A stretch of DNA of 64,000 nucleotides, from the IMG/VR virus record IMGVR_UViG_3300031963_000009. One strand, written 5' to 3'. Positions 4,087 through 55,078 of this stretch are shown in pieces; position 1 is the stretch's first letter; every line of letters starts with the position of its first letter. This stretch comes from a virus. A program made the position numbers and the translations under genes. The notes under the pieces were generated by a model, which saw only the letters and a list, made by a program, of their open reading frames with translations, made no database searches and was not told the origin of the DNA.

Positions 4087-4463
4087 AATACCTACTTTTC
4101 TTACTACTACTTACTCCAACGCAAGTGTATTCACAACAAGTAAACGATTATCAAACTTGTACAAAGTATCGTGAAGTTTACACTCCTGGTTACTATGATA
4201 GATATGGTAATTATGTACAAGGAAATGTTTCTACTCAGTCATACCAAGTCCCTTGCGGAAATGGACCCGTCAATTATCAGCCACGTAGAGTTGATAATTA
4301 TGGGAACAATTATTATCGCCGCGGTTACTGTAATCCTACTCAGGCGACCCTAGGCGCACTTCTAGGGGGTGGTGTGGGTGCTGCACTATCTAGAGGTGAT
4401 GGACGTTGGTGGGCGATCCCTGTAGGCGCTGCCGTAGGTGGTACAATTTTTGGATGTAACTAA
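4083..4463 (+). CDS. Secreted/membrane glycine-zipper protein
   Basis: Signal-peptide-like N-terminus; C-terminal GALLGGGVGAAL...GAAVGGTIFG glycine zipper. Confidence 0.75.
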   Translation: MKYLLFLLLLTPTQVYSQQVNDYQTCTKYREVYTPGYYDRYGNYVQGNVSTQSYQVPCGNGPVNYQPRRVDNYGNNYYRRGYCNPTQATLGALLGGGVGAALSRGDGRWWAIPVGAAVGGTIFGCN

Positions 4464-35167: not shown

Positions 35168-35473
35168 AGAAACACCATCTGATTGTTGCTTCAATCATCC
35201 CAGCTATCCTACTCACATTCGCAACGATTCGTGATAGCTGCGCAAACCCCGATTATGCCAATTACTTCACAGAATCATGCAAAACAAAGTAGAAAACTGG
35301 GTGGACAATCTAACACTCACACAACAACAAAAAGTTTACAACGAGATCGTGGATTATTTCACAAGTGAGGTGATTAAAGAGGTGTTATCAAAGTATGACA
35401 ATTCTCTTGACATTGAACATCTAAACGTATAAAATAGTAACGTACTTTCATTCACACTTAAGGACACACACTT

Positions 35474-35659
35474 ATGCAAACCATCAACAACAAAGTTACA
35501 CGTTACAGAGTTACCTTGGACTTTACAGTTGATACATCTAACTGTGTAAGTCCTAAAGAATGGAATTGGGCTTCACTTCTCGAACTCGGTAACAACGAAT
35601 CAGTCAATGAGGTTTATGTAGAGAACCTCGGAGAATATACCACTCGTAGGAGTAAGTAA
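35474..35659 (+). CDS. Hypothetical protein
   Basis: AAGGA SD; RYRVTLDFTVD...PKEWNWASLLEL. Confidence 0.68.
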   Translation: MQTINNKVTRYRVTLDFTVDTSNCVSPKEWNWASLLELGNNESVNEVYVENLGEYTTRRSK

Positions 35660-35808
35660 TGGACCTCACTACCGCTCACCCTTACGGGGAAGAAAGTTTG
35701 TTCGATTTTGAACAAGAGATCAATGATCAGTATGCTGCTCAGTATGATGAAGATATGATCTTCGATGATTACTCTAGTGGCATAGATGCTGAGAGTTATG
35801 ATCCTTGA
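35659..35808 (+). CDS. Small acidic protein (49 aa)
   Basis: TAATG overlap; AGGAG SD. Confidence 0.5.
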   Translation: MDLTTAHPYGEESLFDFEQEINDQYAAQYDEDMIFDDYSSGIDAESYDP

Positions 35809-35831
35809 TTGATCTCTGATTGTTTATACTG

Positions 35832-36137
35832 TTTTCCACAGCTTTATGATACCTTTGTGGAAAAAGCTGTGGAAAACAAGCCATTAAAAAAAGGCTAAAA
35901 AAATCAAGCTTGTGTGAAAGCTTTCTCGTTTATGTTCTCTCTGTGGCCCCTCTGATGGCTTATAAAAAAGCCTCTGAGACCTTGTAATCTTAGCGGGCAG
36001 GCTATCACACGACCGCATAAATGTCAAGAGACCCCCCACATAAGTCTCCGGGACCACACAGTTTGAGCAACATAAGGTCTCACAGTTTCTTATAGTTTTC
36101 CACAGCACTTGTGGAAAAAGTCTATAAGTTTTCCACA
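35832..36137. promoter_or_regulatory. Cluster of six perfect TTTTCCACA (cyanobacterial DnaA-box) nonamers
   Basis: 35832(+), 35856(-), 35868(-), 36096(+), 36110(-), 36129(+), all in non-coding DNA. Confidence 0.75.
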
Positions 36138-36174
36138 GTCTTATGAGCACTCTAAGTCCCCCACATCTCGGAGC

Positions 36175-36203
36175 TTGACATAAGCTCTCTGAGGCCTTAT
36201 AAT
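36175..36203 (+). promoter_or_regulatory. Perfect consensus sigma70 promoter
   Basis: TTGACA-17-TATAAT; the -35 sits inside the inverted repeat GAGCTT-gacat-AAGCTC. Confidence 0.85.
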
Positions 36204-36206
36204 AAC

Positions 36207-36283
36207 TCTGTGGGAGTGCATAAAGGGGCTGAGTGCTTAAGCTCTTTGAGCCGGCTTAAGTAAAGCTCAAGCCACAAAGACTC
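36207..36283 (+). ncRNA. Candidate structured small RNA or leader
   Basis: Non-coding, directly after the consensus promoter; nested pairings TGTGG/CCACA, GCTGAG/CTCAAGC and TGCTTAAGC/GCTTAAGTA. Confidence 0.35.
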
Positions 36284-36323
36284 ATGAGCCTACCATAGAA
36301 CCTTGACAACTGAGATACACAAT

Positions 36324-36392
36324 GGACACTTATCTAACTGGCCACAGAATGTGCCAGAGGGAGCCAGATCCCGTATATTAGCCATGTTGAGA
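36324..36392 (+). promoter_or_regulatory. Early element copy 16
   Basis: GGACACTTATCTAACTGGCCAC..TGCCAGA..GCCAGATCCCG-TATATT-AGCC-ATGTTGAGA. Confidence 0.85.
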
Positions 36393-36401
36393 GGAACACA
36401 C

Positions 36402-36647
36402 ATGAGCACCACCCAAACCACTCAAGCTACCTACAACGGTTATGCTAACTATGAGACCTGGAATGCTGCTCTGTGGATTGGCAATGAGTACAGTCTGTAT
36501 AAGATTGCTCTTCGTTGTGAAGATTATGCCGAGTTCCAAGAGCTTATGATTGATCACTACGGTATGAGCTGCACCCCTGATGGTGTACTCTGGAACGACT
36601 CTGAGCTTAACCACGATGAGCTCGACGAAGTGATCAAAGAACTCTGA
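36402..36647 (+). CDS. Conserved phage hypothetical protein
   Basis: YNGYANYETWNAALWIGNEY...TPDGVLW.D. Confidence 0.78.
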   Translation: MSTTQTTQATYNGYANYETWNAALWIGNEYSLYKIALRCEDYAEFQELMIDHYGMSCTPDGVLWNDSELNHDELDEVIKEL

Positions 36648-36685
36648 GCTTCGTCTATTCTAACCGTTCACCACACACTAACACC

Positions 36686-36931
36686 ATGAGCACCATTAAC
36701 GTCGCAACCGCTACCAAACTCGACCTGCTGATTGCTGATACTCAAGGGCAGATTAAGTACACCGTGCTCCCCACCCGTAAGGCTCGGAAATCTGAACTGC
36801 TCATGAGCCGCACGAATGGCGTCCGCACCAACACTAACCGTAAGGGTCAGGCATACAGCGGACATGCCACACATGCACAGAATGCTGTGATGGAGGGCAA
36901 TGCTGCTGCGTATTTCAAGACCAGCGGCTGA
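36686..36931 (+). CDS. Basic hypothetical protein
   Basis: IKYTVLPTRKARKSEL...TNTNRKGQAYSGH. Confidence 0.68.
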   Translation: MSTINVATATKLDLLIADTQGQIKYTVLPTRKARKSELLMSRTNGVRTNTNRKGQAYSGHATHAQNAVMEGNAAAYFKTSG

Positions 36932-37737: not shown

Positions 37738-38490
37738 ATGTCAAAAGGATTTACAATTAAAGCAAACGCTCCGACTCCAAAGAAAAACGAGGATGATTTT
37801 GATATTGAAGCCGCGAAGGAAATGATTCGTGGTAAATCGATTATCTTCTGTCTTCCTGGACGTGGATGTTCATATATTTTTCTGAAGAATTTCGTACAGT
37901 TGTGTTTTGATCTTGTGCAGTCTGGTGCAAGTATTCAAATTTCACAGGACTATTCTTCCATGGTTAACTTTGCACGTTGCAAAGTACTAGGTGCAAATGT
38001 TCTTCGTGGACCAAAGCAGATTCCTTGGGATGGAAGACTGCAGTATGATTATCAACTGTGGATTGATAATGACATTGTATTCAACACTGAGGCATTCTAT
38101 CGTCTTGTAGCAATGGATCGTGACATTGCGGCTGGTTGGTACATGACTGAAGATGGTCAGACTACTTCAGTTGCTCATTGGCTTGAGGAAGATGACTTCA
38201 AGAAGAATGGTGGAGTCATGAATCATGAGACTGGTGATACGATGAGTAAGCGTCGTAAGCCATTCACAGTAGACTACACTGGTTTTGGTTGGGTATTGAT
38301 TAAGAAGGGTGTATTTGAGTCTCTAGAGTATCCTTGGTTCGCTCCGAAGATGCAAGTGTTTGACTCTGGAGAAGTTCAGGATATGTGTGGAGAAGACGTA
38401 TCCTTCTGTCTTGATGCAAAGGCAGCGGGCTTTGAGATCTGGTGCGATCCTAAGATTCGCGTTGGACACGAGAAGACTCGTATTATCTGA
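37738..38490 (+). CDS. Conserved cyanophage protein with a GT-A glycosyltransferase-like fold
   Basis: FCLPG, NFARC, LWIDNDIVF (DxD), GFGWVLIKKGVFE, GEDVSFC, DPKIRVGHEK. Confidence 0.78.
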   Translation: MSKGFTIKANAPTPKKNEDDFDIEAAKEMIRGKSIIFCLPGRGCSYIFLKNFVQLCFDLVQSGASIQISQDYSSMVNFARCKVLGANVLRGPKQIPWDGRLQYDYQLWIDNDIVFNTEAFYRLVAMDRDIAAGWYMTEDGQTTSVAHWLEEDDFKKNGGVMNHETGDTMSKRRKPFTVDYTGFGWVLIKKGVFESLEYPWFAPKMQVFDSGEVQDMCGEDVSFCLDAKAAGFEIWCDPKIRVGHEKTRII

Positions 38491-41959: not shown

Positions 41960-44900
41960 ATGACAGATATCAAGAGAGTTAGAATCAACGACATCGTGGA
42001 ATCTCAGATTCCAGAGTTTTTAAATGAGGAATCTCCTTTATTTAAAGTTTTTTTGAAGTCTTACTATAATTCTTTAGATCATAAGTCTGGTGCTATAGAT
42101 TTAGTTGATAACATAAAGTTTTATAAAAGTGTAGAGGCTTTTAATAATAATGATTTAGTTCAGTCAACGACTTTAAATGGGTACATTTATGCGTCAGATA
42201 GTACCATTAATGTCGATAGTACTGATTCTTGGCCAGAAAAATATGGACTATTAAAGATAGATGATGAAATTATAACTTATACTGAAAAAACTGCCACATC
42301 TTTTATCGGATGTATAAGAGGATTTAGTGGAATAGATCAAATAAAATCCACACAAAATTCAGAGTTTTTACAATTTCAGAAAACAGAAGCAGAAGAACAC
42401 GAAGATAACTCTATTGTATATAATTTAAGTAATTTATTTTTAGTAGAATTCTTTGAAAAGTTTAAATATGAATTTGTACCTGGATTTGAATCAAGATCTT
42501 TTTCTGAAGGAATTTCCTCAGAAAATATTTTAACAAGAATTAAAGATTTTTATAGATCCAAAGGAACAAATTCATCATATGAAATTTTATTCAAAATTTT
42601 ATATGGTAAAGATATTCAAATAATTAAACCACAAGATTATACACTAGTACCTTCATCTAATAGCTATTTTGTAACAAAAAATATTTTAGTAGAAAAAATT
42701 TCTGGAGGAGATCCAACAGAAACAAAAGGAAATTTTTTATACCAAAATCTTCCTGGTATAGGTACAGTTAGTGCTTCGATTTATAACGTAGAATATAGAC
42801 CTATAGGAAATAAACTATTTTATGAAATATCTTTAGACTCTACTTCTTTTAGTGGAGTATTTCAAGTTTCTGGTAAAACTAAAGTATTAGAATATACTCC
42901 TGCAGGTTCAAATAGTATTCTTGTAGACTCTACTATTGGATTTTCTAAATCTGGAAAACTTTTAGTAAAACCAAAAGATTCTAATTATATAGAAATTACT
43001 TACTCTGATAAGAGTAGCAATCAATTTTTAGGAGTTAGTGGAGTTACTAAGCCTCTTGACTTTTCTTTGGATATTGTAGAAGAGAAATTTGCTTACAGTT
43101 ACATTGGTGTTGGTAATACATCTAAAGTAGATTTTAGAGTTATCAATGTAATTGATTCTATAGATTTCTCAGAAACTTCCAATTTAAAAGTAGGTGATAA
43201 GATAAGACTATCAGGTTTTGGTAAGGATATGTCTTCTAGCTATCAATTTAGTAGCTGGATATACAATGTTCCAACAAATCACAATATAAAAAATGTATCT
43301 CAGGTAGATTCCGATAAGTATAGGATAATATTATATGATGAGGTTTCTTTTTATAAAGAACAGACTATAAAACTGGAAGATATCTTAGGAAATATTTCTG
43401 ATGCTACCATTCTAGATGTAGAGTATCCAGCTGGAGATACAATTAAAAAGTATACTAATAGAATTCTAGTTCAAGTTACTGGGTCTACTTTTAATGTTTT
43501 GGATTCTAAAATATTAAAAACTTTAATCATAAAATCTAGTCATTTTTCCAATGATTATTCATATATTAATATTATCCCATCCGGAGTACAAAATACCTAT
43601 ATTGATTTTAAAGAACAAAATTTTTATGTAACTTCTACTGGTTTACCAAATTATACTATTGAGGCTTCTGATACTAAAAAAACAATCTCGGTAGTAGGAG
43701 CTTCTTCCACAAGTTTAATTTATTGTCCAAGACATAATATACAAACTGGAGAATCTGTTTATTATGATCCAGGTACTAATTCCACTTCAGGGTTATCTAC
43801 TGGATTTTATTTTGTAACTAGAGTAGATTTAGATAACATAAAATTATCTTTCAGTAAAAATGATATTTTCTCCAAGAAGTATATTACACTGAATCCATTA
43901 ACTGGTAATTTAGATTTTATCTATAAATCTGGATATCAAAATAAAATCATAAAAAATCAAAAGATATTTAAAAAGTTTGATCTTACTGGTAGAAAGAAAA
44001 TTTTTGATGATAAGAATAAAAGATCTACCAATAATAAACAAATAGGACTTTTATCAAATGGAGTTGAGATACTATCTCCAACATTATTTGACGAAAATAT
44101 TTACTATGGAAAGTTGAGTTCAATTGAGGTAACTAATTCTGGAAAAGATTATGATGTTGTAAATGTTCCACAAATAATAATTCAAGATGAACAAGGATCT
44201 AATGCAAAAGCTCACTTAAATTTAAGTGGTGAAGTAAAATCTATTAAAGTTATTAATCCAGGAATTGGATATCAAACAAAACCAAAAATTACTATAACTG
44301 GCGGAAATGGTAGTGGATGCGTATTAGAATCAAATTTAGTAAAGTCAAGGATTACTGTTGGTTTTAGACCAAGTATATCTGTAGATGTTGGATCAAACTC
44401 TATTACCTTTATTAATAATCATAATCTCGTAGACGGCGAAGAAATAATTTACAATTCAAATGGAAACGCTAACATAATTGGATTAGTAGATAAATCTCAT
44501 TATTTTGTTGGGGTTTCTTCTGAAAAAATTATTAAGCTATATAATACCTTCACAGATGCAGTTGATAAAACAAATGAAATAAACATAACTGGTATTAGTT
44601 CTGGTTCTCATTCTTTAGAAACACTAAAAAATAAAAATACTATTACTAGGGTTTATGTAAAGGATCCCGGTAAAGGTTATTCTAACAGAGCAGTAAGAAT
44701 TCCATCGCAATTTACAACAGGAGAAACTGTAGGTATCAACACTTTTGATTCTTACATTTTTGCGACTAAACATGGATTTAATGATGGTGAATTAGTAACA
44801 TATAATCATACTGGAACTCCAATTTCAGGATTATCGACATCAATTAATTATTATGTAAAAGTTTTAGATGCAAATAGATTTAAGTTATCTGTAGCTGGTA

Positions 44901-47900
44901 TTGGAACTACTCTTTCCAAAGAAGATTTTTCAAATAAAAAATATGTTAAGTTTTCTAGTGTAGGCCTTGGTACACATATAATTGCATATCCGCCAATTAC
45001 AATTAATGTAGAAACTATTTCCGAAATTGGTGAAAGTAGTATAGTGACTCCCATTCTACAACCTGTGGTTTTGGGATCAATATCTGATGTTTATCTTGAA
45101 GATGGTGGCATTGGATATGGTTGCACAGATATTTTAAATTTCCATAGAAGACCTTTGGTTACAGTTCAGACCGTAACTTCTGAGTGTGTATTAAAACCTA
45201 TTATTCTTGGTGGTTCTATTATAGATGTAAAGATAATAAACAGTGGAAATGGATATAGAGCTGACTCAGATATTGTAATAAGTGGAGATGGATCTTTTGC
45301 TGAAATTGACCCAATAGTTACGAATGGTAGAGTAACTGGTGTCAATGTATTACGTGGAGGTGTTGGATATGCATCTTCTAATACCGTATTAACTGTTGTT
45401 AATAGAGGTAAAGATGCTAAGTTCCTAGCAAATGTTAATGAATGGAAAATTAATCAGGTAATTAAACTTTCTGGACAAATTTCCAATGAAGATGATGGAG
45501 TATTGTTCCCCAGTAAAAATGAAGATCTTGGATTACAATTTATAAATTTCTATGCACCTAAAAAGTTAAGATATCAATTAGATGATAACTTTACCGAAAC
45601 AAATAAAGAAAGTCCAAATAATAAAGTACACTCTCCAATACTAGGATTTTCTTATGATGGATATCCTATTTACGGACCATATGGCTATGATCCATTAGTT
45701 GGTGGTACTATAAGACTATTAAAAACAAGTTATGAACTTCAACCTGATTTAACGCCAGGAATTAGACCTCCAGGGTTTATTGCAGGGTATTTCATTGATG
45801 ACTATATTTTTACCGGATCCGGAGATTTAGATCAATATAATGGAAGATGGTGTAAAACTCCACAGTATCCTAATGGAACTTATGCTTACTTTAGTTCAAT
45901 AACTGTTGATCCTACTGGCAAATCCTCTCCAACATATCCATATATTATTGGAAAATATTTTAGAGGTACTCCAATAGAGGACAATTTCTTACAAAAAATA
46001 AATCAAGATACGGATCTATCTTCATATAGAATAACAAGAAATATTGGCCCATATTATATTAATAGTAATAATTCTGGATATGATTTGATTGATAAAATTT
46101 CTGATACTTATAAACAAGAATTTAGAGTTAAGGAAGTTCAGGATTCCGGTATTGAGAGTGCAGTTATATTTTCTCCTGGGGACAATTATAGAATAAATGA
46201 TAGACTTTTAATTAATAATAAGAATACATCTGGAACTGGAGCAAATATTGTAGTAGATTCTTTAAAAGGAAAAGAAATAGAATCTTTTATGATCGAGGAT
46301 GTAAAAATAGAAAATGTTACATTCTTATTTAAAAATGATGTAGTAGTCGTCCAAACAACAGAACCACATGAACTTTCTAATGGTGAAGTGATAACGATAA
46401 CTGGTGTTTCTACCATAACTGCTTCTGAATTGGAAGGTAACTGGAAAGTATCAGTAGAAAATAAAACAGTTCAATTATCTGAAAATATTACAGTTGCTGC
46501 TTCTGGTGTTACCACTTTTATTGGTGTTAAGGACATAAACGGATTTAATGTTAATGATGTTATTGGCATAGGAACAGAAATTTTAAGGATAGTTGACATA
46601 TCTGCTCCTAGATCTGGATTTTATGTTAATAGGTTAGCAAATCCAGGAATTCATACAGCAGGAATAGATAATGTTAGGTTATTGCCAACAAGTTTTGAGT
46701 TTGTACCAAAGAGTCCTGTAACTCAAGCTACCTTTGAAAATAGTGTAACATTTTTCAATCCAAAAGAAACTGTAGGTACAGGAACAGATAAAACTATAAG
46801 ATATATTGTCGGTATTGGAACCAGCACTGTTGAAGCCAGGGTTATCCCATCCAGATCCATTTATATACCAAATCATAGATTTTACACTGGTGAACCTCTT
46901 TTATATGGTCCAGGTTTAGGTGGAACTAGTTTATATTTTAATAATGTGGGTAGTGGAGTAAGTATTCCACTTTTAGATGGTCAAATAGTTTATGCCGTTA
47001 ATTTGGGTAAAGATCATATTGGATTATCGACACTTGGATTTACCACAACTAGTGGTATAGGAACTAATTTAAATTCAGTAGAATTTGTTAATTTTGATTA
47101 CTCATTTAGTATAATTGGTTCAGCACACTCACTGACAACATTATATCCAGAAATAAAAGGATCTATTTCCAAACATAATGGTATAGTAACTACTACTAGT
47201 AGTCATGGATTAAGTAATAATGATATAGTTAATCTCAGTATTAATAATAGAGAACTAGATGAAGTAAAGATTCTTTATAATCCTGAAATAAGAAAATTAA
47301 CAACTGCAAAAATACCTTTCGCTAATACTGATGTTTCTATTGCTGATAATACAATAGGTATTGGGTCAGCTATTTTAAAAACTGGAGATAAAGTAGTTTA
47401 TCATACTGAGGGAAGTACTGTTGGTGGATTGCAAAATAATAGTACTTATTATATTTTAAGACTAAATCTGAATAGAATTCAACTTTGTGAATATGAATCT
47501 GATATTAAGAACTCCAATGTAATAGATCTTACATCAACTGGACATGTATCGCATGGTTTTTATCTAATAAACCCTCCATTGAATTTTGTCGAAGGTAGTA
47601 TTATAAAATTTGATTTGTCTGATCCAAGTCTTCTTGAAATGGATCTACAATTCTATGAAGATCCCGATTTCCAAAATACTGTAGAGGTTATTGGAAATGA
47701 TATTGATAACTTTGTTATTTCTAGAACTTTGGAATCACCAGGAACTTTTGGATCTTACGTTACTTTAGATTCATCTAATAAACAATACCCTAAATTACTG
47801 TATTATAATTTAATCGCTAAAAATCCACTAGATCTTAGAAAAAAAGAAATAACATCCGATAGAGAAGTAAAAGGAAATAATAAATTAACGGTAACTAAAC

Positions 47901-50900
47901 ACTCTTTAGATAAGAGTTATATAGTTTCAGTGCCAAATGATACTACATTTACTTTCAATCTAAGTCAAAAATTAACTAAGCTTGAAGAACAGGCATATAT
48001 TTCTTCTAATGAAAATGTTACTTATACTACAAAATCTAAAACGGCTTTAGGTCCAATAAATTCTCTTAAAATTAATTTCCCAGGAAGAGGTTATAAAAAA
48101 TTACCTTTTGTTGAAGGAATTGACACGCAATTTGGTGAAAATGCTATTATTAAACTCAAATCTTCCAAAATAGGTAGAGTCGAAGATTATGAGAGAATCA
48201 AAGATGGATTTGATTATCCAACAGATCCAACTTTAACTCCTTCTTTAAGTGTACCAACAGTTATTGGAATAAGAGATATTTTAACTATAGATTCTGTTGG
48301 TATTTTAACTGGAGGTAGAGGATATAATACTGCTCCGACTTTATTTGTAAAGGATAACCCATCAATAAAATTAAAAGCTGATATAACTGGAGGTTCAGTA
48401 ACAAAAGTCACTATAGTTAACAACTCAACTTCTTTGAGTTCACCACTACAAATTTCCTCAATTTATAATTCTAATGGATATGATATTGATAATGTTTCTG
48501 TTTCTGGAAATGATGTAACTTTAGAATTATTAGATACTAATTTTATTAATGTTGGTTTTGGGAATACACAAATTGATTTTCCTTTCGCAGTTGGAGATGA
48601 AATTTTTATTGAAGGTTGCCGACTGACTAATTCCACTTCATCCAAGGCAAACTTTAATTCTAAATCATATGGATATAGATTCTTTAAAATTACTTCCACT
48701 AGCGTAGAAAATAAAACCATTACTTATAGTATGTCTGGTATTTCTACGGGAGATTTTGGTACTTATGATGATACCATTACTTTGGGATATGTAGTTAATA
48801 AAAAATCTATGCCATCATTTGAGATGATCTTAAATGATAATGTTAACTATCTGTCTGGAGAAAGAGTAACTTCTAGAGTCTTCTCTGGAAATGTAATGGA
48901 GGGTGGATGGGATAATGAACTAAACCAGTTGAGAATAAATGATTCTGCTGGAAGTTTGATAGTTGGAGACAGAATATTTGGAGAAAATTCCAAAATAAAT
49001 GGAGTAGTTGAATATTTTGATACTTTTAATCTAAACTCTACTTTAGGAGTTTCCAGAGATAAAGTTGGAGTGATAGACAATGCTGTTGGAATATTAAATG
49101 ATTTCCAACAAAGAATTTCAGATAATTTCTATTATCAAAAGTTTTCTTATGCTATTAAGAGCGAAATACCTTATGATTCTTGGAGAGAATCTGTAAGATC
49201 CTTGGTGCATCCATCCGGATTTAAAGAATTTTCAGACTTAGAAATCGTTACCGAGGCTACTCAACCCGAAGTTCAAATTGGTATATCAAAATCTACAGAT
49301 CTAAGACCAACAGTTTTAGAATCAGCATCATCATTCCTAGTTAATGTTGATAATAAAATTTCTATTGGTGAAAGAAGTAATTTTAATTTAGTTTATGAGG
49401 AAGATTTTCTTGATGATGGTTCTGTAGAGAAGGTATTCTTTAATGAAGGTATTGCTTTAAGAAATTATATTTTAAATAAAACAAATAAAGTTGTAACAAT
49501 AGATGACATTAGTAGTCAATTTGATGGATCATCAATTCAAACTCTTGATGGAACTTATGCTGATGCTTCTGATCTATTAGATGGAAACAAAGCTTTTATT
49601 CAGCAAGAAGTAGTTGGATTTATCACTGCAACTTATCCTGGAATAGTTACCAGTGTTGGATGGAGTAAAACCAGTTTTACTGAAGAAATAGGAAATGTTG
49701 TAGATGCTATATCTCATGACATTAAGTACAATTCTAACAATAAATCAGTAGGCCAGGGACTGGATTATTGGTCTGGTATTGGAACAAGTTATATTTCTGG
49801 CATCACCACTGAAAGATTATCTGCTTATAATTACATAACAGATATATCAAAATACATTATTAATAATGTTGGAGTTAAAACTTCATATCAACTTGGAACT
49901 CCATTTGCAATAACAACTTCATCTTATAATAATGTTACTGGAATTCAGACTATTAGATTAACTCCCGCAAATATAGTTAATTTAAATGCCTCTGTTGGTG
50001 ATTACGTTGTAGTTAAAAATCTAGTTTTTTCTTGCAACTCTGGTGGAGGAATAAGTACTGCAATATTCCCAAATCTTGGTGCAGGTTTGGATGGAAACGG
50101 CCCATTATCACCAAAAGGATTTGTATATGAAATTATTGGAATAGGTTTGAGTACGATAGAAATAAATCCAGGAATATCTACTATTGATCACACATATGTT
50201 GGTGGCGGCACGGTAGAAAAAGCATTTATATCTACCAGTCAGTACTATAATTTTTCAATTTTAGCAGATTCGGATTGTAGTGTATCTTATAGTTCTAGTT
50301 GTTGTGCTAATGTTCAATCTTCAATTGTGAATTATGTTGGAATTATTACTACAATAATAGGATTAGGAACAGCCTCTAGTCCAGAAATAACCTATCCATC
50401 CATAACAAGAGGTGGAGTTATAGTAGGTTTAACCACATTTAAATTAACATCAAATGGAAATCCACTATTTAAGAGAGAGTTTAGTGGATCTGATTCAAAT
50501 GTAATTAAGATTGACACTGATACTTTTATTTTCAATAATCACAATTTCCAAAGTGGTCAAGAACTGATTTATACCTATTCTGGAACTCCAATTGGAATAG
50601 CAACTACTTCATATACCACTGAAATTAAAGATATTTTAATGCAGGTTGGTAATTATAATGGAACATCAATTTATGAAAATGGGTATGGTGCTGCTATTAC
50701 AACATCAATAACTGGAATTTCTACGGTATTAGTTCCAGCAGGTCCAACAACGCAATTATTTAATGATGTAGTAGGAACCAGTACTTCTGGTGGAATTAAT
50801 GCTGTGTTCGATGTAGTAGTTTCGTATTCTGCAACAACAGGACAACCATTATCAACATCAATTTCTCTGGTTTCAGGTGGAAAAGGATTTGCCGTTGGAC

Positions 50901-53900
50901 AAACAGTATCTATAGCTGGTACTTATTTTAAAGGATCTAATCCAACAAATAATCTCTCATTTGTAGTAAGTTCAACTGGACCAACAGTAATTCAAGCGGC
51001 AGCAAATCAAACCTATTCAAATGTTCCCTCTTTGGATGTAAATGGAGCTACATTTAGTGTTTCTAGAAACAATGATGGAGAAATAAGTTCAATACAAGTT
51101 ACCAATGGCGGATCTGGATATGCATCTACCTCCGTAATTTCTATTGCAGGCACTTACATAGGTGGTTCTAATTCTAACGATAATGTTTCATTTACACCTA
51201 TTGTTCTTGGATCGAATAAACTTCCAAAATCTGTATTTGTCACTAAATTGGATGATAGTAAGTTTAAATTATCAGGATTATCTACTGCAACTATACTCAA
51301 TATAGTTGGTTTTGGTACTGGAATCCATTCATTTGAGTACAAAGAACCCAATACAAGTTCTATTATCACCATAGATGGAGTTATTCAGACTCCAATTAGA
51401 AGTAAATCATTATCCATAACTTTAGGTTCCCCTGTTTCTTCAGCTTCTACAACTTTAATACAAGTTTTAACTGGAATATCTTCTCTTTATACTGGTGACA
51501 TCATTAATATGAATTCCGAATATGTTGTTGTTAAGAATATCGGTGTCGCAGGAACTGATATTATTAAAGTAGAAAGGGGATATTTGGGAACTTCTGCAGG
51601 AGTCCATACTGTTGGAGTAGCTTGTACCGTATTAACTGGTGATTATAATATTGTAGGAGATGTAATTTACTTCACTACAGCACCATATGGAAAAATTGGT
51701 CCAGTAGGATTAAAAACTGGATCTATATTTGGTGGAAGAGTTTTCTCTAGACAATTTGATCCTGGTGAACCTGAAGATAAGAATATTATTTTGGATGATA
51801 TATCTTTATCATTTACTGGAATAGCCGCTACAGAGTTTACTGCAAAAACTAAAGGATCTACAACAACTGCTCTATTCAATAATACTAATTCATCAACAAA
51901 TATCAATAATAATCCTATAATTTTAATTAATAATGTTTTCCAACGTCCTAGAACGGATTATGATATAGACGGTACTTCCGAAAATGTAATTAAGTTTTTA
52001 ACTGGAACTCCTAGTGCGGGTAAAATAGTTAAAGTCGGTGTGACTACTGGATATGGATATTATCCTTTATTGGGCGCGAGTGCAGTGGCTAATGTTTCTG
52101 CAGCTGGAACTATTTCTTCTTTAACTCTTACTGGAAGTGGATCTGGATATAGATTACCTCCAACTGTAGGCATTTATTCTACTGTTGGTTCTGGAGCAAG
52201 TATAACTGCATCAGTTAGTGCAGCCGGTACAATAACCGGGTTCACAATTGTTAACGCTGGATCTGGTTACACTACAACCTCCATCCCAGAAGTTGTAATA
52301 GGAATACCTACTGCCTATAGTAATTTGGGAGTAGCATATACTGGCGGTTCTTCTGGAGTAGGCCAGGGTGCAAAAATTTCAGTTACTGTTGGTCAAGGAT
52401 CTAGTATTATTGATTATAAAATAGATAACCCTGGAATTGGATATAAAGTAGGTGATATATTAAAAGTACCAAATTTACTGATAAATTCTGGATTATCTAC
52501 TGTTTTCCAAGAATTTAGACTAACTGTTAGAGAAGTTCAAACCGATAAGTTTTCTGGTTTTTATCCTGGACAGTTTATATTATTCGATGATTTTTCTGAT
52601 AGATTCAATGGATTCCGTAAAAAGTTTACACTATCCGTTACTAATAACAATGTTAGAGAAATTCTGAGTTTAAAAACTCTCGCTGGAACTGATTTAAACT
52701 TAGAAAATAATCTTTTCATCTATATTAATGATATTTTACAAATTCCTGGAGTTTCTTATACGTTCTCTGGATCTAGAGTTTTATTTACTGAAGCTCCAAA
52801 ACAAAATTCCACCTGCACAGTTTTATATTACAGAGGATCTTCTATAGATGTAGAGGAGGTAACTCCACCACCTACCCTTAAAGAAGGTGACACTATTATT
52901 ATTAAAGAAAATGAGTTTGATCTTTTTGATACTGATCAATTGGAAAGAATTGTCAAAAAAATATCTGCTTCAGATCAAATAGACACTTTTACTTATAATA
53001 GTGTTGGAATAATTACTGATCCAAATAAAAATAGACCTCTAACTTGGATTAAACAGGAATATGATAGAATCATTAGCGGACAACTTTATTCTAAGTCAAG
53101 ATTAAGTTTAAAGAGTAGTATTAGACCTGTTGCTAAACTAATTAAGTCTGTAACTGAAACCGATTCTGTAATTTACGTTGATAATGCGTTCCCAATTTTT
53201 AGTGATGTTGACTTATTAAGTGAAGATAAGAGAAATGTTGTTATAAGTGAAGTTAAAAATATATCAGCAGCAATCTGTACATCTATAGTTTCAAGTTCTT
53301 CAACAATTTCTTCTATTAGTGTTGTTGATGGTGGAGTTGGTTATGCCTATACTCAAAACCCTGTCATCAGTATTTCTAAGTCATTGATTTCTAGAAAAGA
53401 TCCAATTAAAGACTGGAAACCTTCTACAGGAATTACCACAGGATATGAATTAAACTCATTAATTTATGGAAATACTTTGGTTGCTGTTGGATCCTCTTCT
53501 CTATATGCCACAAGTATTGATGCTGAAAGTTGGTCTACAGGATCTATCGGATTTGGTGGAACAATAAACTTTACTTCCGTATCTTGTGGTGGAACAAATG
53601 TTTATATGGCTGTTGGTGAATATGGTATAGTTTCTAAATCACTTGGATATGGAAGTACAGTTGGTCCATGGACTTTAATAAACCTTCTGGAGGAAAGTGT
53701 AGTTCCTGGTTTAGGACTTATAACTAGATTCCCAACAACTTACACGGGAACTCTAAATGACATAGTTTATTCTCCAAATTTAGATTCATGGACTGCTGTT
53801 GGAGCTGCAGGATCAATATTTGGTGGAGTTGGTATAGGATCTACAATGTTAATTAGTAGATTCTCAGGAACACTTCAAAATATTAATAGTATAACTTATT

Positions 53901-55078
53901 CTCCAAGTGGACTTGTTGCAGTAGGTGACAATGGCGTAATATTATCTTCCGCTAATAATGTAATTTGGGATTCAAATAGTAGTCCAACATCCTTTAATTT
54001 AAATAAAGTCATTTATGTAAATGGTAATTATGTAGTCGTAGGAGACTTTGGAGTAGTATTAAAGGGTATGAATCCTAGTTCTCTGCAATTAATGCCTGTT
54101 AATATTTCTGAAAATCTAGTAGATGTTTATTATAATGATTTTTACGTTGCTATCACTTCTAATGGCGACTTGTATTACTCTTTTGATCTATCTACATGGA
54201 TTTATAGAGATACCAATCAACCTAATAATTTAAAGGACATTTTACAGGTTCCAACATTAGGTTTAGAGGGAAGATATATTTCTGTAGGATCTGCAGGAAC
54301 CGCAATTTATAGTGATCCTATTTTCAATAGAGCCACTGCTATTGGTTATGTTTCTTCAGGAATATTAACTTCCGTCGAAGTTACAAATGGTGGATTTGGT
54401 TATCAACAAGATAATGAGCCTCCAGTTTTAGTTGAACCAGACATTGTTAAGATAGAAACTATTAAATCATTTAAAGTTATCGGTGATTTCGGAACTATTA
54501 TCGGAATTAATACTTTTGTTGCAGGTACTCCAGGAATAGGAACAACTTCTCCAAAAATAGAATTTATACTGAAGTCTGAGACTTATGATAATAGTACATT
54601 AGGTATTGGGTATTCATCTCTTAATAATTTTGGAGTCGATTCCAGTCAACTTTCTAAGGGAGATTATTTCATTATTACTGATAGTAATGTAACTGTTGGA
54701 CATGCATTAACGGGCATTACTACAAGTTTGGGTGGTATGTCTAACTATCCAAACTCCAGAGTTGGTACTGCATATACCTACTTGGATGGAGTTTACAGGG
54801 TAGAGTCCGTAACTACCGCTAGTGTTGGAATTGTAACTGTAAGTTGCAATTTTGCTCCATTAGAATCTCCTGCAGGAAATTACATAGAAGTTTATAAGAG
54901 AGGTGAAGATGTAAGTGGTGTTAATACAAATGGATTCTACGGAAGATATAGTTGGAGTAAAATATATGATTATCAAAATAGGGCATTAGGAACTCCAGAA
55001 GCTTTTGATATTAATACAAATAATGGTTTGACCGGACTTTCCACAGCACCACAAGTTACTAGAACGATATCAGTCTAA
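41960..55078 (+). CDS. Giant (4372 aa) virion structural protein at the gp7 position
   Basis: Lies between gp6 and gp8; N-terminal ESQIPEF..E..PLF..FL..YY and IKDFYRSKGT..S..ILFKILYG; many GxGY repeats, a YHYH-like segment and a beta-propeller-like segment. Confidence 0.85.
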   Translation: MTDIKRVRINDIVESQIPEFLNEESPLFKVFLKSYYNSLDHKSGAIDLVDNIKFYKSVEAFNNNDLVQSTTLNGYIYASDSTINVDSTDSWPEKYGLLKIDDEIITYTEKTATSFIGCIRGFSGIDQIKSTQNSEFLQFQKTEAEEHEDNSIVYNLSNLFLVEFFEKFKYEFVPGFESRSFSEGISSENILTRIKDFYRSKGTNSSYEILFKILYGKDIQIIKPQDYTLVPSSNSYFVTKNILVEKISGGDPTETKGNFLYQNLPGIGTVSASIYNVEYRPIGNKLFYEISLDSTSFSGVFQVSGKTKVLEYTPAGSNSILVDSTIGFSKSGKLLVKPKDSNYIEITYSDKSSNQFLGVSGVTKPLDFSLDIVEEKFAYSYIGVGNTSKVDFRVINVIDSIDFSETSNLKVGDKIRLSGFGKDMSSSYQFSSWIYNVPTNHNIKNVSQVDSDKYRIILYDEVSFYKEQTIKLEDILGNISDATILDVEYPAGDTIKKYTNRILVQVTGSTFNVLDSKILKTLIIKSSHFSNDYSYINIIPSGVQNTYIDFKEQNFYVTSTGLPNYTIEASDTKKTISVVGASSTSLIYCPRHNIQTGESVYYDPGTNSTSGLSTGFYFVTRVDLDNIKLSFSKNDIFSKKYITLNPLTGNLDFIYKSGYQNKIIKNQKIFKKFDLTGRKKIFDDKNKRSTNNKQIGLLSNGVEILSPTLFDENIYYGKLSSIEVTNSGKDYDVVNVPQIIIQDEQGSNAKAHLNLSGEVKSIKVINPGIGYQTKPKITITGGNGSGCVLESNLVKSRITVGFRPSISVDVGSNSITFINNHNLVDGEEIIYNSNGNANIIGLVDKSHYFVGVSSEKIIKLYNTFTDAVDKTNEINITGISSGSHSLETLKNKNTITRVYVKDPGKGYSNRAVRIPSQFTTGETVGINTFDSYIFATKHGFNDGELVTYNHTGTPISGLSTSINYYVKVLDANRFKLSVAGIGTTLSKEDFSNKKYVKFSSVGLGTHIIAYPPITINVETISEIGESSIVTPILQPVVLGSISDVYLEDGGIGYGCTDILNFHRRPLVTVQTVTSECVLKPIILGGSIIDVKIINSGNGYRADSDIVISGDGSFAEIDPIVTNGRVTGVNVLRGGVGYASSNTVLTVVNRGKDAKFLANVNEWKINQVIKLSGQISNEDDGVLFPSKNEDLGLQFINFYAPKKLRYQLDDNFTETNKESPNNKVHSPILGFSYDGYPIYGPYGYDPLVGGTIRLLKTSYELQPDLTPGIRPPGFIAGYFIDDYIFTGSGDLDQYNGRWCKTPQYPNGTYAYFSSITVDPTGKSSPTYPYIIGKYFRGTPIEDNFLQKINQDTDLSSYRITRNIGPYYINSNNSGYDLIDKISDTYKQEFRVKEVQDSGIESAVIFSPGDNYRINDRLLINNKNTSGTGANIVVDSLKGKEIESFMIEDVKIENVTFLFKNDVVVVQTTEPHELSNGEVITITGVSTITASELEGNWKVSVENKTVQLSENITVAASGVTTFIGVKDINGFNVNDVIGIGTEILRIVDISAPRSGFYVNRLANPGIHTAGIDNVRLLPTSFEFVPKSPVTQATFENSVTFFNPKETVGTGTDKTIRYIVGIGTSTVEARVIPSRSIYIPNHRFYTGEPLLYGPGLGGTSLYFNNVGSGVSIPLLDGQIVYAVNLGKDHIGLSTLGFTTTSGIGTNLNSVEFVNFDYSFSIIGSAHSLTTLYPEIKGSISKHNGIVTTTSSHGLSNNDIVNLSINNRELDEVKILYNPEIRKLTTAKIPFANTDVSIADNTIGIGSAILKTGDKVVYHTEGSTVGGLQNNSTYYILRLNLNRIQLCEYESDIKNSNVIDLTSTGHVSHGFYLINPPLNFVEGSIIKFDLSDPSLLEMDLQFYEDPDFQNTVEVIGNDIDNFVISRTLESPGTFGSYVTLDSSNKQYPKLLYYNLIAKNPLDLRKKEITSDREVKGNNKLTVTKHSLDKSYIVSVPNDTTFTFNLSQKLTKLEEQAYISSNENVTYTTKSKTALGPINSLKINFPGRGYKKLPFVEGIDTQFGENAIIKLKSSKIGRVEDYERIKDGFDYPTDPTLTPSLSVPTVIGIRDILTIDSVGILTGGRGYNTAPTLFVKDNPSIKLKADITGGSVTKVTIVNNSTSLSSPLQISSIYNSNGYDIDNVSVSGNDVTLELLDTNFINVGFGNTQIDFPFAVGDEIFIEGCRLTNSTSSKANFNSKSYGYRFFKITSTSVENKTITYSMSGISTGDFGTYDDTITLGYVVNKKSMPSFEMILNDNVNYLSGERVTSRVFSGNVMEGGWDNELNQLRINDSAGSLIVGDRIFGENSKINGVVEYFDTFNLNSTLGVSRDKVGVIDNAVGILNDFQQRISDNFYYQKFSYAIKSEIPYDSWRESVRSLVHPSGFKEFSDLEIVTEATQPEVQIGISKSTDLRPTVLESASSFLVNVDNKISIGERSNFNLVYEEDFLDDGSVEKVFFNEGIALRNYILNKTNKVVTIDDISSQFDGSSIQTLDGTYADASDLLDGNKAFIQQEVVGFITATYPGIVTSVGWSKTSFTEEIGNVVDAISHDIKYNSNNKSVGQGLDYWSGIGTSYISGITTERLSAYNYITDISKYIINNVGVKTSYQLGTPFAITTSSYNNVTGIQTIRLTPANIVNLNASVGDYVVVKNLVFSCNSGGGISTAIFPNLGAGLDGNGPLSPKGFVYEIIGIGLSTIEINPGISTIDHTYVGGGTVEKAFISTSQYYNFSILADSDCSVSYSSSCCANVQSSIVNYVGIITTIIGLGTASSPEITYPSITRGGVIVGLTTFKLTSNGNPLFKREFSGSDSNVIKIDTDTFIFNNHNFQSGQELIYTYSGTPIGIATTSYTTEIKDILMQVGNYNGTSIYENGYGAAITTSITGISTVLVPAGPTTQLFNDVVGTSTSGGINAVFDVVVSYSATTGQPLSTSISLVSGGKGFAVGQTVSIAGTYFKGSNPTNNLSFVVSSTGPTVIQAAANQTYSNVPSLDVNGATFSVSRNNDGEISSIQVTNGGSGYASTSVISIAGTYIGGSNSNDNVSFTPIVLGSNKLPKSVFVTKLDDSKFKLSGLSTATILNIVGFGTGIHSFEYKEPNTSSIITIDGVIQTPIRSKSLSITLGSPVSSASTTLIQVLTGISSLYTGDIINMNSEYVVVKNIGVAGTDIIKVERGYLGTSAGVHTVGVACTVLTGDYNIVGDVIYFTTAPYGKIGPVGLKTGSIFGGRVFSRQFDPGEPEDKNIILDDISLSFTGIAATEFTAKTKGSTTTALFNNTNSSTNINNNPIILINNVFQRPRTDYDIDGTSENVIKFLTGTPSAGKIVKVGVTTGYGYYPLLGASAVANVSAAGTISSLTLTGSGSGYRLPPTVGIYSTVGSGASITASVSAAGTITGFTIVNAGSGYTTTSIPEVVIGIPTAYSNLGVAYTGGSSGVGQGAKISVTVGQGSSIIDYKIDNPGIGYKVGDILKVPNLLINSGLSTVFQEFRLTVREVQTDKFSGFYPGQFILFDDFSDRFNGFRKKFTLSVTNNNVREILSLKTLAGTDLNLENNLFIYINDILQIPGVSYTFSGSRVLFTEAPKQNSTCTVLYYRGSSIDVEEVTPPPTLKEGDTIIIKENEFDLFDTDQLERIVKKISASDQIDTFTYNSVGIITDPNKNRPLTWIKQEYDRIISGQLYSKSRLSLKSSIRPVAKLIKSVTETDSVIYVDNAFPIFSDVDLLSEDKRNVVISEVKNISAAICTSIVSSSSTISSISVVDGGVGYAYTQNPVISISKSLISRKDPIKDWKPSTGITTGYELNSLIYGNTLVAVGSSSLYATSIDAESWSTGSIGFGGTINFTSVSCGGTNVYMAVGEYGIVSKSLGYGSTVGPWTLINLLEESVVPGLGLITRFPTTYTGTLNDIVYSPNLDSWTAVGAAGSIFGGVGIGSTMLISRFSGTLQNINSITYSPSGLVAVGDNGVILSSANNVIWDSNSSPTSFNLNKVIYVNGNYVVVGDFGVVLKGMNPSSLQLMPVNISENLVDVYYNDFYVAITSNGDLYYSFDLSTWIYRDTNQPNNLKDILQVPTLGLEGRYISVGSAGTAIYSDPIFNRATAIGYVSSGILTSVEVTNGGFGYQQDNEPPVLVEPDIVKIETIKSFKVIGDFGTIIGINTFVAGTPGIGTTSPKIEFILKSETYDNSTLGIGYSSLNNFGVDSSQLSKGDYFIITDSNVTVGHALTGITTSLGGMSNYPNSRVGTAYTYLDGVYRVESVTTASVGIVTVSCNFAPLESPAGNYIEVYKRGEDVSGVNTNGFYGRYSWSKIYDYQNRALGTPEAFDINTNNGLTGLSTAPQVTRTISV

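Follow-up and report, generated by a model that had tools for sequence, protein, structure and literature searches.

The oriC regions of Synechococcus elongatus PCC 7942, Anabaena PCC 7120 and Cyanothece 51142 share a published nine-base DnaA box, TTTTCCACA (PMC4674748). This nonamer accounts for 7 of the 11 repeats in PCC 7942 and is bound by domain IV of Cyanothece DnaA in electrophoretic mobility shift assays (EMSA), and the oriC oligonucleotide used carries two tandem boxes 11 bp apart with a G after each (PMC4674748). Basal unwinding of oriC follows an ordered layout—a DnaA box, a spacer of 0–16 bp, at least three NAN trios and AT-rich DNA (PMC8287927). The phage array described here uses the identical 9-mer and resembles the cyanobacterial origins (PMC4674748) in its tandem boxes ~11 bp apart, its G after the box and its AT-rich neighbour. 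Unlike them, it sits in a lytic phage, adjoins neither dnaN nor dnaA, lacks the box–spacer–trio layout (PMC8287927), and is neither equalled in its density of perfect boxes nor copied at any locus in nine picocyanobacterial genomes.

A second point of comparison is phage T4, whose oriF and oriG consist of a promoter and a downstream unwinding element at which the transcript forms an R-loop primer, and whose oriE holds iterons of unknown role (PMC3016281). The hub containing our array resembles these origins (PMC3016281) in being non-coding, with a promoter-like element leading into a meltable stretch and repeats beside it, and in lying at a boundary between transcription blocks in the same type of phage; the array also shares with them that it is optional and not conserved between relatives. 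The T4 origins differ in having no DnaA boxes and in needing no host initiator, and nothing at the hub evidently corresponds to the MotA-dependent middle promoters of T4. T4-type replication as such needs no DnaA, and to our knowledge a replication origin has been mapped in no cyanomyovirus.

DnaA-box clusters outside origins are already known, as are DnaA boxes in plasmid and temperate-phage replicons. Escherichia coli datA and the Bacillus subtilis clusters are like the array in being non-origin groups of high-affinity boxes able to hold many DnaA molecules; the array differs in being viral, and phage replication would multiply it. The datA locus is defined by its IHF dependence and by DnaA-ATP hydrolysis. 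P1 oriR, F, pSC101, RK2 and the R-loop origin of pBR322 make use of the host initiator by way of a few consensus boxes beside iterons, AT-rich DNA or an R-loop, and such plasmid and phage replicons encode their own Rep protein or use the host helicase, whereas T4-like phages bring a full replisome. In phage T5, the injection stop signal is said to carry DnaA boxes, which would make T5 a strictly lytic phage with such boxes in a repeat-rich non-coding region (bioRxiv 10.64898/2026.01.13.699316). Our literature search returned no description of DnaA boxes in cyanomyoviruses or other T4-like phages. We also know of no two-step injection in cyanomyoviruses.

The window (the whole 64,000-nucleotide stretch analysed, from IMG/VR record IMGVR_UViG_3300031963_000009) belongs to a T4-like cyanomyovirus (Kyanoviridae) with best matches to Synechococcus phages; psbA is absent from this record. 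A series of small early genes lies upstream of the hub, most of those neighbouring the array having no known function, and p250 is followed by gp25, gp6, a gp7-like protein and gp8 (Table 1). The gp7-like product is a very large baseplate or structural protein of 4,372 amino acids, encoded by a single ORF between gp6 and gp8 (41960–55078). Between 25000 and 39000, a region spanning the small early genes and the hub, G+C is 0.40–0.49 against 0.27–0.39 in the flanks, falling sharply between ~37 and 39 kb; its appearance is that of a mosaic block derived from a cyanophage lineage of higher GC.

Table 1 Coordinates of the array and of neighbouring features in the window.
Feature	Position	Strand	Description
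Non-coding hub	35809..36401		593 bp, between the small early genes and the p250-gp25-gp6-gp7-gp8 baseplate module
Left triplet	35832..35876		perfect TTTTCCACA at 35832 (+), 35856 (−) and 35868 (−); start-to-start spacings 24 and 12 bp
AT-rich spacer	35883..35923		two A7 runs (35886–35892, 35897–35903), then hairpin AAGCTT-GTGTGA-AAGCTT (35906–35923)
Conserved central element	35974..36030	−	CTGAGACCTTGTAATCTTAGCGGGCAGGCTATCACACGACCGCATAAATGTCAAGAG, that is CTTGTAATCTTAGCGGGCAGGCTATCAC...AAATGTCAAG
Right triplet	36096..36137		perfect TTTTCCACA at 36096 (+), 36110 (−) and 36129 (+); spacings 14 and 19 bp
Rightward promoter	36175..36203	+	perfect sigma-70-type TTGACA-17-TATAAT, facing the baseplate module
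DUF7249 gene	36402..36647		downstream of the hub; weaker promoter-like site of its own at 36351–36379
p250	37738..38490		250-aa protein, phrog_1574; downstream of the hub

An initial annotation, made from the sequence alone, had reported six perfect nonamers within 306 bp in two triplets, and all six are present with the positions and strands it gave. Its statement that no perfect copy occurs elsewhere was wrong, as a stray seventh lies at 2377–2385 (−). The genome-wide rarity that it had set as a check is borne out: the whole 111,083-bp record (judged ~52% complete) contains only seven copies, six of them clustered. Shuffling the window with dinucleotides preserved yields on average 1.46 copies per 64 kb, with seven or more in 0 of 100 shuffles, and a Poisson estimate for at least six within 306 bp is ~1e-16. 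One-mismatch versions of the nonamer show no enrichment over the window as a whole (43 against an expected 34.8). The array has the marks of a DnaA-box cluster, namely an exact 9-mer match, clustering beyond chance and rarity elsewhere in the record.

The surroundings described in the initial annotation also stand. The hub has no family-supported ORF and no Rfam match, the A-rich tract between the triplets extends over 35883–35905 with its two A7 runs, and the consensus promoter at 36175 is perfect. The left triplet begins 24 bp past the stop codon of the upstream ORF (35659–35808). The rightward promoter is retained in L128, weaker in the related contigs L132, L133 and L106, and followed by a ~190-nt leader; a structured leader or small RNA at 36208–36345 was ruled out, there being no excess stability (z +0.63). 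Two further short motifs are concentrated in the hub. CTTAT[AG]/[CT]ATAAG occurs eight times (35959–36201) against a window mean of 0.88 per 600 bp (s.d. 1.2), frequently as ACATAAG-N-TCTC, and CCACA half-boxes are enriched at 13 copies, six of them within the boxes. Both motifs may be sites for a second protein.

Scanning IMG/VR with the pattern TTTTCCACA-N3-30-TGTGGAAAA recovered at least 120 loci, and many of the matches listed have 3–8 perfect boxes in 400 bp. Among these listed matches, 75 of 120 are cyanomyoviruses with genes in common with the window, and in about 60 of the 75 the cluster lies 0.7–6 kb upstream of the p250-gp25-gp6 module, a synteny that persists down to 34% gp6 identity. 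Because this sample was selected by the motif itself, we drew a second one by p250 homology alone. In the second sample, the 249 kb upstream of p250 contain 66 perfect boxes and the 512 kb downstream contain 5, with a cluster in 9 of the 34 loci that have more than 3 kb of upstream sequence (about a quarter); some three quarters of the sampled relatives have none. Clusters upstream of the module range from two to eight perfect boxes. Small clusters are present in 5 of 14 complete cultured genomes (S-PM2, with three boxes, Syn9, S-SM2, P-TIM68 and DSL-LC02), the other nine having scattered single copies or zero; the Syn9 equivalent lies at ~52.6 kb. Clusters therefore recur in the syntenic regions of relatives, and from these counts the array is real, conserved in place and patchy in presence.

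Several observations accompany these searches. Upstream of p250, some box-less relatives carry other repeats: ten copies of ACTATCAC-type repeats in L167, seven of a ~20-mer in L154, five of a repeat in L193, and five to six of ATCTCGACGAGA in L195 and L199. In L149 (4360–4520), about eight TTCGTTATA-like repeats stand next to eight perfect DnaA boxes, an arrangement that recalls plasmid origins in which iterons adjoin DnaA boxes. A microvirus contig (L012, encoding an F capsid and a Rep-like protein) has three perfect TTTTCCACA at 2279–2318, just upstream of its replication protein gene, and L037 has the same box triplet and flanking motif at 4399–4438. Two high-GC matches, L086 and L114, were considered as host oriC fragments and rejected, L114 encoding a phage capsid protein. 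In S-PM2, the record annotates tRNA-Asn and tRNA-Leu over the box triplet (NC_006820, 19177–19333); ARAGORN found no tRNA there (L311 1678–1834), and the tRNA coordinates in the record therefore look displaced.

The hub as a whole is 75–78% identical over ~590 bp in four related contigs (L106, L128, L132 and L133), and close relatives retain the number of boxes while their positions shift. L027, whose p250 is 79% identical, repeats the order of the window (left boxes, spacer, central element, right boxes, forward promoter), and L148 has five copies of a variant, TTCTCCACA, at the equivalent place. The best-conserved non-coding piece among close relatives is the central element, which also occurs in distant loci, including the box-less L143, L145 and L151. 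Its k-mers tend to occur together with arrays (TCTTAGC is present in 21 of 60 clusters and in 6 of 322 background chunks), and boxes lie on one fixed side of it in 54 cases against 14. Ten or more distinct loci have a gap of 57–59 bp between boxes and element; the gap measures 56 bp in S-PM2, 76 bp in Syn9 and 111 bp in the window, with an AT content of 61–75% in the relatives shown and 61% in this window. Boxes, an AT-rich spacer and a promoter-like element form a fixed module, of which some box-less relatives keep the element.

On its minus strand, the central element reads TTGACA (36027–36022), 17 bp and TGn-TAGCCT (36004–35999). Its conservation suggests a leftward promoter, which would fire into the AT-rich spacer and the left boxes. 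The putative −10 is weak, being TAGCCT here and TAAGAC in marine types, without the final T. In RNA folding, the minus strand of the spacer resembles a terminator, and a transcript from the putative promoter would meet an AAGCUU hairpin and then U7.

Spacing, flanks and mismatches were compiled over 89 distinct clusters, comprising ~270 sites and 184 adjacent box pairs. Tandem pairs, a class not imposed by the search pattern, peak at 11–12, 21–22 and 42–44 bp, convergent pairs at 13–14, 23–24 and 34–35 bp, and divergent pairs at 13 and 19 bp, a phasing of ~10.5–11 bp that follows the DNA helical repeat. All four spacings in the window (24, 12, 14 and 19) fall on these family peaks, and the S-PM2 triplet has the same order as our left triplet (+, −, −) with spacings of 13 and 12. 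Flanking bases are preferred as well, with A at −2 (61%), G at −1 (67%) and G or A at +1 (96%) across the 89 clusters. One-mismatch sites are 3.6-fold enriched inside clusters, and the 25 such sites depart from the consensus at positions 1, 3 and 6, with 4, 8 and 9 always intact, whereas mismatches outside clusters are spread over all positions. Compared with TT(A/T)TNCACA, the position-6 changes are unexpected, and the numbers are small. In their phasing, flanks, mismatch pattern and shifting positions, the boxes behave as protein sites on duplex DNA.

These properties bear on an account in which no protein reads the 9-mer and the repeats serve as hairpins only, whether terminators, RNA-stabilising stems or the stem-loops of a mobile early-promoter cassette. 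Boxes 1 and 3 can form a 16-bp stem directly after the stop codon in plus-strand RNA (z −4.0) and boxes 4 and 5 a 9-bp stem, and the sole Rfam matches across 35300–36800 are weak ones to hairpin-type miRNA precursor families, which arise because the boxes are inverted. A pure hairpin reading fails because 64 of the 184 adjacent pairs are tandem and unable to pair. The same nine bases appear in every arrangement, whereas for a hairpin any complementary sequence would do; phasing at 10.5 bp belongs to duplex DNA, and no compensatory changes that preserve pairing while altering the 9-mer were seen in relatives. We regard hairpins alone as a most improbable explanation.

Complete picocyanobacterial genomes, reached via Syn9 psbA, supplied nine host chromosomes for comparison. 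Each of five marine Synechococcus chromosomes contains 8–28 perfect boxes, a number not above that for a reversed control pattern, with two at most in any 400 bp; four further picocyanobacterial genomes (one a freshwater Cyanobium) have 0–2 close pairs. Upstream of dnaN (in WH7803, MIT S9451 and MIT S9507), only one-mismatch boxes are found. The array is therefore not a copied host origin, a possibility we rejected since at most two perfect boxes stand together in the nine genomes and the dnaN-upstream boxes are degenerate.

A convergent perfect pair 44 bp apart is the one feature that recurs in the hosts, seen in three Synechococcus loci (L302, L304 and L305) and in two of the four further genomes (G007 and G008). 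In the three loci, TTCTCCACA lies ~170 bp off. The WH7803 pair (L302 3200–3421; 1,819,200–1,819,420) has a murD-like gene nearby and adjoins a DUF1818 gene, at a distance from both dnaN and dnaA. Such a pair might represent an oriC not recognised so far, or else a site of the datA or DARS type.

As to the protein that reads the array, the name given in the initial annotation, a cyanobacterial DnaA box, agrees with the published consensus and with EMSA binding by Cyanothece DnaA domain IV (PMC4674748). DnaA of Synechococcus WH7803, taken as a stand-in for the host of this phage, aligns to solved domain IV structures and keeps the DHTTV motif. All nine bases of the host consensus are intact at the ~270 sites, which come from divergent phages. 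A phage-encoded DnaA was discarded as the binder, as a search of this record and of five complete box-bearing phages for the DnaA-like DNA-binding domain PF08299 gave no match. Host DnaA, in our view, probably binds the array.

A different binder, a phage early protein or another host factor for which identity to the DnaA box would be coincidence or mimicry, would fit the flank preference, which extends past the 9-mer (A at −2, G at −1, purine at +1). The five TTCTCCACA of L148 could be a concerted change tracking a co-evolving binder, and most of the neighbouring small genes lack a known function. Full conservation of the consensus at so many sites in divergent phages speaks for DnaA itself, as do the spacing and the +1 G, found also in a real cyanobacterial oriC oligonucleotide (PMC4674748). 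The variant TTCTCCACA also accompanies the conserved perfect pair in three Synechococcus genomes, and no DnaA-like domain turned up in the phages checked. We consider another binder distinctly unlikely.

One purpose offered in the initial annotation was a datA-like sink that stops host replication. On our account of it, the boxes of multiplying phage genomes, hundreds of perfect copies wherever they lie in the genome, would soak up DnaA, prevent new rounds of host chromosome replication and spare nucleotides for the phage. Given how sparse boxes are in the host chromosomes, the phage array, denser in perfect boxes than any locus in the nine genomes, would be the strongest DnaA site in the cell, and its patchy, optional distribution would suit an accessory takeover function. 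That density stands in favour of the idea; the fixed position and geometry do not fit it, for a sink needs no set place, side or 57–59 bp distance to another element. Many arrays, moreover, have only two or three boxes, and one incoming genome would bind few DnaA molecules, so a sink would take effect late. Cyanomyoviruses degrade host DNA anyway. We think a sink unlikely.

DnaA might also act here as a transcription factor or roadblock only, with no replication role. The right triplet would then tune divergent promoters (leftward 36027–35999, rightward 36175–36203), and the left triplet would block read-through between the upstream early operon and the hub. In E. coli, several promoters are known to be activated or repressed by DnaA, and RNA polymerase can be halted at DnaA-box complexes, which supports such a role. 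The right-triplet boxes do lie between the two promoters, with centres at about −110, −96 and −77 from the expected start of the 36175 promoter, and in ~32 of 40 related clusters the array is succeeded by a strong forward promoter, with a strong reverse one inside it in ~12 of 40. Box-to-forward-promoter distances across relatives range from 4 to 250 bp, which is unlike a set arrangement for activation; the −35 and −10 of the 36175 promoter are both clear of boxes, and the rightward leader has no clear product. We rejected promoter proximity as evidence of regulation, since the early region has a promoter every few hundred bases and the distances vary so widely. For the promoter control suggested in the initial annotation, three boxes do sit at about −77 to −110, but the variable distance in a promoter-dense region weakens the idea. 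A purely transcriptional role seems to us improbable.

The initial annotation had also proposed a DnaA-assisted early origin. Taken as a mimic of oriC, this finds no support. Reading the orientation rule from E. coli oriC, in which AT-rich DNA lies 3′ on the box strand, we found no oriC-type unwinding layout in the window: along the strand of boxes 35856 (−) and 35868 (−), the A-tract comes 5′ of them, on the other side of the tandem boxes, and the remaining boxes face GC-rich DNA or a minimal run of three trios. With the orientation wrong, and with no host locus of more than two perfect boxes in the nine genomes, we do not favour an oriC mimic; a T4-style origin of promoter and AT tract, with DnaA as an accessory, may still apply.

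The reading that we favour, and hold tentatively, is accordingly of the T4 kind, with host DnaA docking in cis and gating a cassette of promoter and AT tract as a candidate replication start. The six nonamers would be high-affinity host DnaA sites and the accessory part of a three-part non-coding module, to which this phage adds the second box triplet and the perfect rightward early promoter. At each triplet, DnaA molecules would sit side by side on one helix face, next to the meltable spacer and ~100 bp downstream of the putative leftward promoter, where they may open the spacer or stall RNA polymerase in it. An RNA–DNA hybrid would thereby be favoured and would prime the first round of replication, as in T4-type phages, tying the start of phage replication to the level of the host initiator. 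We infer DnaA binding in vivo, the leftward promoter and the action of the cassette as an origin from the features set out above. A link to the growth-, cell-cycle- or light-dependent initiation state of the host is speculation.

Resemblance of the hub to T4 oriF and oriG favours an origin here, as do the other iteron-like repeats that box-less relatives carry at this place. Counting against a DnaA-linked origin, the array is optional, and L143, L145 and L151 have the element without boxes. These phages encode their own helicase loader, gp59. GC skew, put forward in the initial annotation as a check on an origin, is flat, with no turn at the hub; skew in T4-like phages tracks transcription. 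As a statement about T4-like cyanophages, that they recruit DnaA to a promoter and AT-tract module to start or time their first replication round is doubtful on present evidence.

Cyanomyoviruses kill a large share of marine and lake picocyanobacteria, and T4-type phages are regarded as indifferent to the host initiator. The regulatory hub studied here contains a real and conserved array of sites at which host DnaA very probably docks, in a layout common to many related viruses, including S-PM2 and Syn9. The array in the tractable pair S-PM2/WH7803 and in Syn9 offers a concrete handle on its role. If the favoured reading is true, T4-type phages would have here their first origin assisted by DnaA, coupling viral DNA synthesis to the level of the host initiator. 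The phage might use DnaA to begin replicating, read it as an indicator of the state of the host, or withdraw it so as to stop the host, and each of these would be a new kind of link between phage and host.
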